From the sequence record PZ386963.1: 64,000 nt of DNA. One strand, given 5' to 3'. A program made the position numbers and the translations under genes. Of the stretch, positions 29,298 to 35,270 are shown piece by piece (the first letter of the stretch is position 1; each line of letters opens with the position of its first letter). The notes below the pieces were generated by a model, which saw nothing but the letters and a program-made list of their open reading frames with translations, was not told where the DNA came from and searched no databases. The stretch is from a phage.

Positions 29298-31079
29298 ATG
29301 ACTAAATCACTTTATGCAGTACCAGCAGGTTTAAACGCAGATGCTTACAAATCTGGTCATGTTTACCAGTATCCTAGTGCAACAGAGTACTTGATGTTCA
29401 ACCTGACACCACGTAGCGACAAATGGTTTAACAGCCCTTTAGCAATTGATGGTGTAGTGGCTTTTGGTATTCAACGTTTTGTTAAAGATTACTTGATAGA
29501 CCACTGGAACGCCACTTTCTTTGAACGTGATAAAAAAGAAGCAATTGACGAAATCTTAGAAGTCATGAATGGTGTTCTGGGTAAAGATACTATCGGTCGA
29601 GAGCATTGGGAAGCACTTCACGACTTAGGTTATCTGCCAGTTGAAGTATACGCTGTAGAAGAAGGCACAGTTGTCCCGATGCGTGTCCCAATGATTGTCT
29701 TCCAGAACACTGTTTCAGGTTTCCATTGGGTAGCAGGTTATCTGGAAGATGCTTTCTCTGCTGAGATTTGGAAGGCTTGCACCATTGCAACTATCGCATT
29801 GCACTACAAACGTATCTGTAAGAAGTGGGCTGACCTTACTTGCGACAACGACTTACATTTACCTTATCAGTGCCATGACTTTGCTATGCGTGGTATGTCC
29901 GGCTTTACTGATGACGCATTTAACGCTGTAGGCCACTTAACCAGCTTTAAAGGAACTGATAGCTTCCCTGCTGTATACACGGCTAAACGCATCTATGGAC
30001 AGTCTTACCCAATCTGTGATATTGGTAGCTCTGTACCAGCCACTGAACACTCTGTAATGTGTGCAAACATTGCTTGGGGAGGTGGTAATGAACTGATTGA
30101 AGAAGAAAGACGCTTTAAAGGTGAGTTACAAACCTTCCGTCGTTTCTTAACAGAAACTTACCCAACTGGTATTGCAAGTATTGTTTCAGATACTTATAAC
30201 TTCTGGAGAACTGTGTCAGAAATCTTACCAGCACTCCGTAAAGAAATTATGGAACGTGATGGCAAACTGGTAATTCGTCCTGACTCTGGAGACCCTGTAC
30301 ATATTGTCACAGGTTATAAAGCAATCCACTTAGAGTGTGCTAAGAAGGCTTATTATGAGCACCTAAGCAAGCTGGAAGCCAGTGACACAATGTTGAATGC
30401 TGTTCTGAACATGAAGCTTGAAAACATCAGCTATGGTATTGCTGGATGGCTACTGTCAGAAGGCTACGAAATGGTTGTTGACAGAGAAGACTTTGAAGCT
30501 GCTGATACAGTGATGTTGAAAAATGCTTATATGGTTGGTTCTGCAAACGTTGTAACACGCCCTGTAGCTGAGATTGATGGAGCTATTAAGACACTGTACA
30601 ACATCTTTGGGGGAACTATTAACTCTAAAGGGTTTAAGGTACTGGATGAGCACATCGGCCTTATCTATGGTGACTCTATCACGCTGGAACGTGCAAACGA
30701 AATCCTGAAGCGTCTGTATGAAATGGGTTTTGCAAGCTCTAACGTAGTGTTTGGTGTAGGTTCTTACACTTACCAGTACATGACTCGTGACACCTTTGCA
30801 TTTGCTGTCAAAGCAACTCTTGCAAGCATTGGTGGTAAAGAGATTATGCTTGCAAAAGACCCTAAAACAGATAGTGGTGTTAAGAAATCTGCCTTTGGTG
30901 GTGTAGCACCTATGTGGGATGGGGATAAGCTGAAAGCTGTAGATGGCTATGGATTCCAGAGTTTTGCAGATGCACTTGACCACCCAGCTTGTGCTTTACG
31001 TTTAGTCTTTAGCGACTCTGAGCAGTTCGGTTACACAACTCTTGGTGATATTCGAAATAATATTGACAAGCAGCTTTAA
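29298..31079 (+). CDS. Nicotinamide phosphoribosyltransferase (Nampt/NadV)-like protein; candidate Namat
   Basis: 593 aa; family assignment from overall Nampt-like sequence character, no single diagnostic motif picked out; immediately downstream of Prs-like gene. Confidence 0.65.
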   Translation: MTKSLYAVPAGLNADAYKSGHVYQYPSATEYLMFNLTPRSDKWFNSPLAIDGVVAFGIQRFVKDYLIDHWNATFFERDKKEAIDEILEVMNGVLGKDTIGREHWEALHDLGYLPVEVYAVEEGTVVPMRVPMIVFQNTVSGFHWVAGYLEDAFSAEIWKACTIATIALHYKRICKKWADLTCDNDLHLPYQCHDFAMRGMSGFTDDAFNAVGHLTSFKGTDSFPAVYTAKRIYGQSYPICDIGSSVPATEHSVMCANIAWGGGNELIEEERRFKGELQTFRRFLTETYPTGIASIVSDTYNFWRTVSEILPALRKEIMERDGKLVIRPDSGDPVHIVTGYKAIHLECAKKAYYEHLSKLEASDTMLNAVLNMKLENISYGIAGWLLSEGYEMVVDREDFEAADTVMLKNAYMVGSANVVTRPVAEIDGAIKTLYNIFGGTINSKGFKVLDEHIGLIYGDSITLERANEILKRLYEMGFASSNVVFGVGSYTYQYMTRDTFAFAVKATLASIGGKEIMLAKDPKTDSGVKKSAFGGVAPMWDGDKLKAVDGYGFQSFADALDHPACALRLVFSDSEQFGYTTLGDIRNNIDKQL

Positions 31080-31089
31080 AAGTATATGA

Positions 31090-31118
31090 TAAGAGGCTCC
31101 TACGGGAGCCTTTTTAAT
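31090..31118 (+). terminator. Rho-independent terminator
   Basis: GGCTCC-TACG-GGAGCC hairpin plus T-run. Confidence 0.6.
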
Positions 31119-31654: not shown

Positions 31655-34021
31655 ATGCGCATGGTAAATGACCACGCAGAAGTGATTAAGAGTTCAACTT
31701 CTTTGGAGACATCTCAAGCACAGATTACAATGACACCTGAAATGTTCAGCCTTCTGAGTTCTGGTGTATACACATTCAAAGAAAGGGCAGTGATTCGTGA
31801 ACTGTCATGTAATGCAGTAGATGCTCAGAAAGAAGCTGGAAAAGAGAACATCCCATTCCATGTGCATTTACCTACTCGATTTGAGCCTTACTTTGAAGTC
31901 CGTGACTTTGGAACTGGTTTAACCCATGACAAAGTAATGAGTTTGTACCTGAACTACGGGGCTTCTACGAAGAATGACTCTAATGATTACATTGGTGCAA
32001 TGGGTATCGGCTCAAAATCACCATTTGCAATTGCTCAGTCATTCACAGTGTCTAGCTATGTTGATGGTGTTGTTAATAAGTACTCTGTTTACCTTGAGAA
32101 TGGTATCCCTCAAGTAACTAAGCTTACTACTAACCCAACAAATGAACCTAATGGCTTAGCTGTACGTGTGGCAGTTGCTGACCACCGTATTTCAAAGTTC
32201 TTTGAAGAGGCTGGTCACGTATACTCATACTTTGCTGTAAAACCAGAAAGTAACATTGTATATGATGATGTGTTAGCAGATATGAACGTCATTGCTCGTG
32301 AAGAAGGTGTTTATGATGCCATGATTCATAAGCAAAGCTGGCGTTCTAGTGGTAACAGGACAGAGTTTAATGTGGTGATGGGTAATATTGCCTATCCAGT
32401 GAACATGGAAGCATTACTTGGTGATGATTTCTTCAAAGTCTTGCCAGAGTTTTTCCGTAGGAGCGTAGACCTTGTAAACATTTACATGCCTATTGGTTCA
32501 GTCGCTATTGCAGCTTCTCGTGAAGCATTGCAGATGAATGATACGACAAAAAATGTTATCATTGAGGCTACTAAAAAGATAACTGAAGCAATTACAAAGG
32601 ATGTTATCAAGAAAGTTAATAGCCAACCTACACTCATGGATGCTGCACAGGCTTATGCAGAGTTACGTTTGAACTCACGAGAAATGTTTAATGCTGTGTG
32701 TCCAAAGCTAGAGTGGGGAGGTGTTAAGCTTGATTCTCTGGAAGAAGAATTGCTAAACATTCGTCGTGGGATTATCTACGCAGAAGACGGCTCAGTCATT
32801 TATGAACGTGACGGTAAAGGTAATATCAAGGTTGATAGGAACGGGAACAATATCCCTAAAGTGGATTATCTTTATAATCCAGTTGCTTATGTCAAGTTCA
32901 ACTCTTTAGAGAGTAAGATTCGTGCAACAGCACTTTCCTACACTCAAGAGGCAAGTATGTTCAATATCTTTGGTGCAATGCGTAAAAGCCAAATTGAACA
33001 GTTTTTGTTCGTGATAAATGACCGTCGTAATAAAAATGGCACTGAGAAGACTGTAGGCCGCAATCAGATTCTGCGTGGTGCATGTCGAGATTACGCCAAT
33101 GAGTCAAATCTGTTTCACAGATACAATGGTATTGTGTTTGTATTCTCGACTGAAAAAGAGTTAGATGATTTAATCAACCTGCATAAACTTGATAAAAGTT
33201 TGTTAAAGATTGTGAAAATGTCTGATAAGGAGCACCATTACCAGCGTAAAGAATCTGTCAGGGGTGTTGTAAAACTCTGGAAAGCAGTTCCGGCAGAAGG
33301 TGTAGCCTCCTACAAAGAGGTGTCAGAAGACTTAGACACAATTGAAGAACCTCAGCTTTACATTAAGGCAGTTGGTGACACAGTTGATGGCGAATGTTTT
33401 TGCTCATCTCCAGAAGATGTAGCTAAGTCAGTTGCTAATGTTATAGGGAAGACAGTCTATGTTTTCCGAAAAGCAAATTGGAAAAAGATACCAGAAGACT
33501 GGATTGAAGTAGATGAGAAGCTTTTGAACGACAGCTTAACTGATGTTCATTGGATTAATCATAACAGGTATATGACACGCATCTACATGAATGGTGTTCT
33601 TGACCTTACAAGCAGTTGGATTATTGCCAGAAACTTTACATTCAATAACAGGAAGATTTCTCGTGGCTATTGCTATTCACGAGATACTAGCAAAACTATC
33701 TTCCTAGAAGGTAATGAAGAGGCTGTAGAGGCTATGTTCGGTAAAATCCAGTATGTTGCTGCACCGTTTGCATACACTTACACTATTAGTAGATTGCAAA
33801 CTTTGAAAGAATGCCTTGACAATGATACAAAACTGTACAAGAAAATTAAGAAAGCTGGTGACCGCATGGTCATTAAGGTGACAAACTACCTTTCAAAAAG
33901 AAAACAAGAGAACTTCTTGCTTTCTCATTTAGATTGGAATAAAGTGTCACCCATCGAAGTGAGTAAGTTCTTAGGCTTTGATGTGAAGTGTGTTCCAGAA
34001 GGGACTACAATTTACGATTAA
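31655..34021 (+). CDS. rIIA: rIIA-like protein with N-terminal GHKL (Hsp90/histidine-kinase-type) ATPase domain
   Basis: IRELSCNAVDA, DFGTGLTHD, IGAMGIGSKS match GHKL N, G1, G2 boxes; 788 aa followed by rIIB-sized gene. Confidence 0.6.
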   Translation: MRMVNDHAEVIKSSTSLETSQAQITMTPEMFSLLSSGVYTFKERAVIRELSCNAVDAQKEAGKENIPFHVHLPTRFEPYFEVRDFGTGLTHDKVMSLYLNYGASTKNDSNDYIGAMGIGSKSPFAIAQSFTVSSYVDGVVNKYSVYLENGIPQVTKLTTNPTNEPNGLAVRVAVADHRISKFFEEAGHVYSYFAVKPESNIVYDDVLADMNVIAREEGVYDAMIHKQSWRSSGNRTEFNVVMGNIAYPVNMEALLGDDFFKVLPEFFRRSVDLVNIYMPIGSVAIAASREALQMNDTTKNVIIEATKKITEAITKDVIKKVNSQPTLMDAAQAYAELRLNSREMFNAVCPKLEWGGVKLDSLEEELLNIRRGIIYAEDGSVIYERDGKGNIKVDRNGNNIPKVDYLYNPVAYVKFNSLESKIRATALSYTQEASMFNIFGAMRKSQIEQFLFVINDRRNKNGTEKTVGRNQILRGACRDYANESNLFHRYNGIVFVFSTEKELDDLINLHKLDKSLLKIVKMSDKEHHYQRKESVRGVVKLWKAVPAEGVASYKEVSEDLDTIEEPQLYIKAVGDTVDGECFCSSPEDVAKSVANVIGKTVYVFRKANWKKIPEDWIEVDEKLLNDSLTDVHWINHNRYMTRIYMNGVLDLTSSWIIARNFTFNNRKISRGYCYSRDTSKTIFLEGNEEAVEAMFGKIQYVAAPFAYTYTISRLQTLKECLDNDTKLYKKIKKAGDRMVIKVTNYLSKRKQENFLLSHLDWNKVSPIEVSKFLGFDVKCVPEGTTIYD

Positions 34022-34100
34022 AGTGTTTGACAAGGGGCTTCAAAGCCCCTTAGAATAGCCTTACAAAATGGTTTATTAACTAACAAGAGAGAGTAATAAG

Positions 34101-35231
34101 ATGACTACTAAAACTAAAGCACAGATTGACGCAGAAATTTACAAACTGGTTAAAGAAGGTAAGCTGACTAAAACAGCTATTGCACAGAAATTTAATACTT
34201 CAACCCGTTCAGTTGGTCGTGCTGTAGAGCGTCATGAAGCAACCTTAAAAGGTAATAAGAAGGCGACTTCTACACCAGCTACGAAGACTTTGAAACAAGT
34301 TGCTAAGACTTTGAAACAAGTTGCTAAGACTTTTAAAAAGAAATCTGGCAAACAAGTTGAAAAGGTCGTTAAAGATGCTGTACAGAAAGCTCCAGTAAAT
34401 AAACTGCATGAAGCTATGCAGAAAGATGACAAAATTGAGTACATGATTACTGGTGACTCTGTAATTATGACTTACGGTTCAGAGTCTGAAATTGTTGAAT
34501 CTACTCATCCGAACTATCAAGAGATTGTAGTTCATGTTGTGAAAGGTGAGTTCAAGAAAGCCTTTGAACTGATGAACATTCGTAAGTCTATCGAAAACTT
34601 CACTCAGGGTGCTATCACAATCAAAGGTGACAAGTTATTCTACGGTGCTGTTGAGATGCGCTCTACTCTGGTTGACCGTATTCTTCACATGATGAAGACT
34701 GGAGATAAAGGTTTTGAACGCCTTGTGATGTTCTTCGAAAAACTGATGGAAAACCCATCTAAAGACTCTGTAGAACAACTTTGGGGCTTTGTATCTCACC
34801 TTGATGTTGAAATTGATGAAGAAGGCTACATCATTGGTTGGAAGAAAGTCTCTACTCGTGAAGGTAAGCTGGTTGACTCCCACACCTACAGAGTACCTAA
34901 TGATTTGGGTAACATTGTAGAGATGCCACGTTGGATGGTTGATAATAACCGTAACGTAACTTGCTCTCAAGGTCTTCATGTTGGTGCTTGGGATTATGTT
35001 CGTTGCTTCTCAGGTGATACAATCCTGAAGGTTCGTGTCCATCCACGAGATGTTGTATCTGTTCCAACTGATTACAATGATATGAAGATGCGCTCGTCTC
35101 GTTATGAAGTTGCAGCAATCGTTGATAGTCAACGTAAAGTGCTGAAAGCATGGGATGGCAAGACTGACGCTTTACATGTCATCGTCGGTACTGCTGGAGA
35201 ACTTATCTCCCAACGTAAACGTGAAATCTAA
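34101..35231 (+). CDS. rIIB: rIIB-like protein (by position and size)
   Basis: 376 aa directly after rIIA-like gene; contains in-frame 21-bp tandem duplication (KTLKQVA x2). Confidence 0.4.
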   Translation: MTTKTKAQIDAEIYKLVKEGKLTKTAIAQKFNTSTRSVGRAVERHEATLKGNKKATSTPATKTLKQVAKTLKQVAKTFKKKSGKQVEKVVKDAVQKAPVNKLHEAMQKDDKIEYMITGDSVIMTYGSESEIVESTHPNYQEIVVHVVKGEFKKAFELMNIRKSIENFTQGAITIKGDKLFYGAVEMRSTLVDRILHMMKTGDKGFERLVMFFEKLMENPSKDSVEQLWGFVSHLDVEIDEEGYIIGWKKVSTREGKLVDSHTYRVPNDLGNIVEMPRWMVDNNRNVTCSQGLHVGAWDYVRCFSGDTILKVRVHPRDVVSVPTDYNDMKMRSSRYEVAAIVDSQRKVLKAWDGKTDALHVIVGTAGELISQRKREI

Positions 35232-35237
35232 TAAGTA

Positions 35238-35270
35238 ATTTCTTAAAAGGCTGCTTCGGCGGCCTTTTTT
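35238..35270 (+). terminator. Rho-independent terminator
   Basis: GGCTGC-TTCG-GCGGCC hairpin plus TTTTTT. Confidence 0.6.

Follow-up and report, generated by a model that had tools for sequence, protein, structure and literature searches.

Within the window, a 64,000-nucleotide stretch of phage DNA (PZ386963.1), two adjacent genes lie on the plus strand where the first-pass annotation had placed an rIIA/rIIB-like pair. rIIA lies upstream of rIIB, the gap between them is 79 bp and the two belong to a single terminator-bounded unit. The features of the locus, in the coordinates of the window, are as follows.

31063-31090, promoter-like site TTGACA-16-TATGAT, abutting the terminator at 31091..31114
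31091..31114, plus strand, intrinsic terminator 3' of the NAMPT gene (10-bp stem, -16.6 kcal/mol, z -3.9, then a T-run)
31655-34021, plus strand, rIIA ortholog, 788 aa (ORF call, profile search, BLASTP)
31712..32629, plus strand, conserved N-terminal rIIA module, residues ~20-325 (predicted Bergerat-fold ATP-binding domain and transducer-like second domain)
31793-31825, plus strand, rIIA N-box IRELSCNAVDA, residues 47-57
31904-31930, plus strand, rIIA G1 box DFGTGLTHD, residues 84-92
31991-32020, plus strand, rIIA G2 box IGAMGIGSKS, residues 113-122
32630..34018, plus strand, lineage-variable C-terminal part of rIIA, ~460 residues (confident structure model)
34027..34056, plus strand, promoter-like site TTGACA-18-TAGAAT in the rIIA-rIIB gap
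34101-35231, plus strand, rIIB ortholog, 376 aa (ORF call, profile search, BLASTP)
34101..34253, plus strand, three-helix HTH-like head of rIIB, residues 1-51 (AF2 pLDDT 86-97; helices 6-19, 24-30 and 35-51)
34254..34400, plus strand, Lys/Ala-rich variable linker of rIIB, residues ~52-100 (pLDDT <50 at 53-62, 64-66 and 78-98)
34284..34333, plus strand, perfect in-frame tandem duplication of a 21-bp unit (2 x 21 + 8 bases)
34401..35228, plus strand, conserved alpha/beta core of rIIB, residues ~101-376 (high pLDDT; invariant TCSxGLH motif and PxDVVS...P segment)
35245..35268, plus strand, intrinsic terminator closing the rII transcription unit (10-bp stem, -14.7 kcal/mol, z -4.8, T-run)

The terminator at 31091..31114 is the 5' boundary of a transcription unit comprising two small ORFs and then rIIA, which is preceded by an AAGAGGA Shine-Dalgarno sequence, and rIIB. 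The 58-aa ORF upstream of rIIA was considered as a counterpart of the small gene rIIA.1 found upstream in T4 but this was rejected, as the former belongs to phrog_3931, the latter to phrog_1683, and the two sequences are unrelated. The promoter-like site in the rIIA-rIIB gap matches the consensus at 11 of 12 positions, and its spacer holds a GC-rich hairpin, GGGGCT-TCAA-AGCCCC (centroid -13.3 kcal/mol, z -2.0). Column identity across this element is 96% among six phages, with the differences in LinBro and Si3 confined to the loop, and it may serve as an internal promoter for rIIB. PeSL promoter stem-loops were also considered as a possible Felix O1 feature; as these were defined in T4-type phages and are absent from the wV8 and Felix O1 papers, we retain the hairpin-in-promoter element as an observation.

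The assignment of the two genes to the rII families withstands scrutiny, since their homology extends well beyond the generic GHKL fold. rIIA matches the PHROG rIIA family phrog_612 (E 6e-189; residues 1-770 on profile positions 1-716 of 725) and, by direct BLASTP, T4 rIIA (32% identity over 306 aa, E 2e-37), and its orthologs in relatives are annotated as rIIA. Similarly, rIIB matches the PHROG rIIB family phrog_609 (E 2e-88) and T4 rIIB (39% identity over 289 aa, E 9e-62), and is 97% identical to cluster P0001 (alignment A1). Neither protein scored above the gathering cut-off in Pfam (HATPase_c, E 0.12), and the assignment would have been missed had Pfam been used alone; PF26926, putatively an rIIB-associated domain, is present in precomputed annotations of nearly all the listed rIIB homologs but was not returned by the scan of the window rIIB. 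Single-sequence searches of the PDB identified no structure for either rII protein. In T4, the founding members of the families (NP_049616 and NP_049889) are adjacent, in the same order and orientation as here. The likeness is much closer in Escherichia phage JohannRWettstein (Bas63; MZ501086), likewise a Felixounavirus, in which bas63_0084/0085 occupy an identical syntenic series: PRPP synthetase, NAMPT, small ORFs (with one additional small ORF upstream), rIIA, rIIB, a hypothetical gene and PNK. Bas63 gp84 is 98% identical to the window rIIA across all 788 aa, whereas gp85 (368 aa, with a different C-terminal 'allele') is just 80% identical to the window rIIB; thus, rIIB diverges more than rIIA within the genus.

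The model of rIIB suggests three parts. Its N-terminal module is conserved as far as T4 rIIB, and gave weak Foldseek matches to the DNA-binding domains of DeoR, KorA and NarL/DosR (probability no higher than 0.97, but E >0.5) and sub-threshold Pfam HTH matches; we therefore describe residues 1-51 as HTH-like, an assignment drawn from weak matches, with DNA binding only putative. The linker that follows is a natural indel hot spot: indels among relatives are concentrated in it, and across 53 homologs it ranges from 20 to 235 aa (median 62) with a K/A/V/S/T-rich composition. The invariant motifs of the core are common to T4 rIIB, and Foldseek found no solved-structure counterpart of the core at E <= 0.001. 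T4 rIIB is a shorter protein (312 aa), with the HTH-like head in common; its linker is much shorter and the C-terminal tail is missing. Close relatives of the window have rIIB proteins of 365-375 aa, most commonly 369.

It is in this linker that the first-pass annotation had reported a perfect 21-bp tandem duplication, at about 34289-34330. The duplication is real and was located to within 2 bases: the first copy of the unit ACTTTGAAACAAGTTGCTAAG lies at 34287-34307 and the second follows directly at 34308-34328; only the extent of the duplication needs amending, as the perfect stretch is slightly longer than two units. Tandem Repeats Finder (TRF) reports 34284-34337 with a period of 21, 2.6 copies, 96% matches and a score of 101, the highest score of any tandem repeat in the window; the perfect tandem is also the longest there. 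The chance expectation for such a perfect run at lags of 4-200 is ~2e-10 (analytic), and the longest runs in five shuffles were <=10. The duplication is in frame, encoding TLKQVAK twice over seven codons, and so adds seven residues, including two extra lysines, to the linker. A short helix is predicted over the duplicated heptads (residues 63-77) with low confidence, which leaves room for a structural role of the linker and hence for a functional effect of the duplication. A match of the heptads to a designed coiled-coil peptide in the PDB (E 0.37) was dismissed as noise.

Possible length polymorphism had also been proposed, together with a check of copy number in related isolates, and here the expectation was not borne out. 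A single copy of the unit is present in 11/11 fetched relatives, Bas63 also has one, and all 14 query-covering phage records span 70 bases rather than 91, again equivalent to one copy. Among the matches listed, the rII locus aligns over 3555-3558 bases in 40/40, compared with 3577 here. In the closest protein cluster (1018 members, mostly from Logan assemblies, of which 40 were read and 15 listed), 14 of the 15 listed proteins measure 369 aa and the remaining one 370 aa. The two-copy junction is absent from IMG/VR, JGI metagenomes and GTDB genomes, the three DNA collections scanned, and an exact-protein look-up for the two-copy rIIB gave no match. On these sequences, the two-copy allele is private to PZ386963.1 among the relatives and collections examined; with two copies in this genome only, and no copy-number differences among relatives, the repeat is not a variable-number locus. 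The linker around the repeat is still indel-prone at the scale of the family.

The suggestion of recent slippage fared better. Single-copy relatives carry an 8-bp microhomology, AAGACTTT, at both ends of the unit, and the surrounding linker is prone to indels. As in slipped-strand, in-frame duplications between short direct repeats generally, the single-copy state shows microhomology flanking the unit, and the two copies match perfectly. Recent replication slippage is thus supported by sequence comparison as the origin of the repeat: slippage between the two copies of AAGACTTT, 21 bp apart in the ancestral sequence, would have generated the duplication and inserted one seven-residue unit into a flexible linker. 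We found no very close single-copy sister genome with which to date the event; relative L011 shares the local flanks of the repeat with the window, yet its identity over 6.7 kb is just 95.9%.

Most likely, the duplication has little or no functional effect, and we regard it as real and probably harmless, lying in a floppy part of rIIB. It could instead be adaptive, if a longer basic linker altered how rIIB counters defences or how it is sensed as a trigger. T6 rIIB directly triggers a Lysobacter gasdermin/CARD defence system, with escape mapping to rIIB (PMC10312443); furthermore, rIIB is the more divergent partner in the genus and lineages differ in linker length. However, the reported escapers are null alleles rather than linker variants (PMC10312443), the allele occurs in one genome with no recurrence among relatives, listed cluster members or the three DNA collections, and the linker is modelled with low confidence and tolerates large differences in length. 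We therefore consider an adaptive role quite unlikely. The more specific proposal, that the extra heptad was selected for escape from a rIIB-sensing defence (compare T6 rIIB) or for widening the range of abortive-infection systems blocked, is very improbable, but if true it would provide a natural linker-length allele for dissecting rII mechanism.

A sequencing or assembly artefact, with a true rIIB of 369 aa as in relatives, would account for a two-copy form that is unique among all relatives examined and for the perfect identity of the copies. Against this, any read is far longer than the 21-bp unit, and creation or collapse of such repeats by an assembler is therefore rare; the insertion keeps the reading frame exactly and falls in the one segment of rIIB with frequent natural indels; and the 8-bp microhomology in the ancestral sequence is what real slippage predicts. 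An artefact is thus quite unlikely, and we retain slippage as the preferred reading.

The function of the pair can be approached through published genetics of orthologs, which support the anti-exclusion role proposed for the locus. Deletion of rIIA or rIIB in Bas63 is reported to reduce plating on QatABCD hosts by 10^4-10^5 and to be complemented (PhageMaP preprint, 10.1101/2024.10.10.617714). The rII genes of the Ounavirinae phage SUSP1 counter lambda RexAB (CRISPRi-ART, PMC11879866), as do those of T4 (HIDEN-SEQ preprint; PMC11879866), and T4, SUSP1, N4 and others no longer plate on RexAB hosts once either gene is lost (PMC11879866; HIDEN-SEQ preprint). For Felixounavirus rII mutants, the literature reports sensitivity to QatABCD only, with RexAB unreported. 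Where no defence system is present, knockdown has no effect in five phages (PMC11879866), nor has loss of rII in T4 (HIDEN-SEQ preprint) or Bas63 (PhageMaP preprint). By analogy, these studies support the conclusion that rIIA and rIIB of PZ386963.1 would be dispensable on naive hosts and required in the presence of certain abortive-infection systems.

These same results bear on the older view that rIIA and rIIB are lysis inhibitors or membrane-integrity proteins, which delay lysis at the membrane instead of countering defence. That view survives in the PHROG and GenBank names ('RIIA/RIIB lysis inhibitor' or 'membrane integrity protector'), but these names are a historical legacy, no transmembrane segment is predicted in either protein, rIIA is a clamp-type GHKL ATPase, the head of rIIB is HTH-like and removal of rII is without effect in the absence of defence. 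Lysis inhibition is therefore very unlikely to be the function of this pair, and 'lysis inhibitor' is a historical misnomer for counter-defence genes.

In rIIA, all three of the ATP-binding boxes quoted in the first-pass annotation are present, and E49, N53, D56, D84, G86, G114, G117, G119 and K121 are invariant across 86 homologs. All of these boxes are included in the alignment of the T4 N-terminal module, and fold searches as well as motif residues back the GHKL assignment. That the protein is no true rIIA but just some GHKL ATPase, or else an Hsp90 chaperone of phage origin, as the Pfam result and the best PDB matches (all Hsp90 family, by Foldseek and profile) might suggest, is refuted by the phrog_612 match, the T4 rIIA alignment and the fold search, and can be given almost no weight. 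The NCBIfam HSP90 score is far under its cut-off and the NTD-MD-CTD architecture is not matched, which places rIIA outside the Hsp90 family proper. The modelled order of a Bergerat fold and then a transducer-like second domain is that of the clamp-type GHKL branch (GHL/MORC/Hsp90), and rIIA belongs structurally with dimerizing clamp ATPases, not histidine kinases. It is a member of none of the known groups (Hsp90/TRAP1, MORC2/3, SMCHD1, Topo VI-B, MutL and type II topoisomerase), to which its identity is 11-15%, and hydrolysis and dimerization are putative, by analogy with them. For the ~460 C-terminal residues there is no counterpart in these ATPases or in solved structures, and BLASTP gives no significant alignment of them with the C-terminal half of T4 rIIA (725 aa); a variable C-terminal domain of rIIA has also been noted in the literature. 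A PADLOC scan gave a weak, uninformative GHKL-level match to TmtA.

Taken together, it is highly probable that this locus is the rIIA-rIIB counter-defence operon of a Felixounavirus, one of the Felix O1-like myoviruses, carrying in rIIB a private and recent slippage product that most likely has little or no effect. The pair would act as a two-gene module needed only on hosts with certain abortive-infection systems. rIIA, with a clamp-type two-domain GHKL module of the kind seen in Hsp90, MORC, MutL and topoisomerase, intact ATP-binding residues and a lineage-specific C-terminus, would bind and hydrolyse ATP to act in one complex or pathway with rIIB, itself composed of a small HTH-like head and a conserved core joined by a basic linker that is modelled with low confidence. 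Together, they may prevent either the triggering of a defence system or the cell death that it causes.

The rII locus was already known, with annotations in Felix O1-like phages going back to 2010, and Felixounavirus genomes are by convention opened at rIIA. The genes have also been tested, as the Bas63 orthologs were shown genetically to be counter-defence factors; the value of the locus is confirmatory and descriptive, and minor as a discovery. The duplication, the one unusual feature of the locus, illustrates microhomology-mediated slippage cleanly and on a small scale; it could mark the strain, or offer studies of rIIB a natural variant in linker length.

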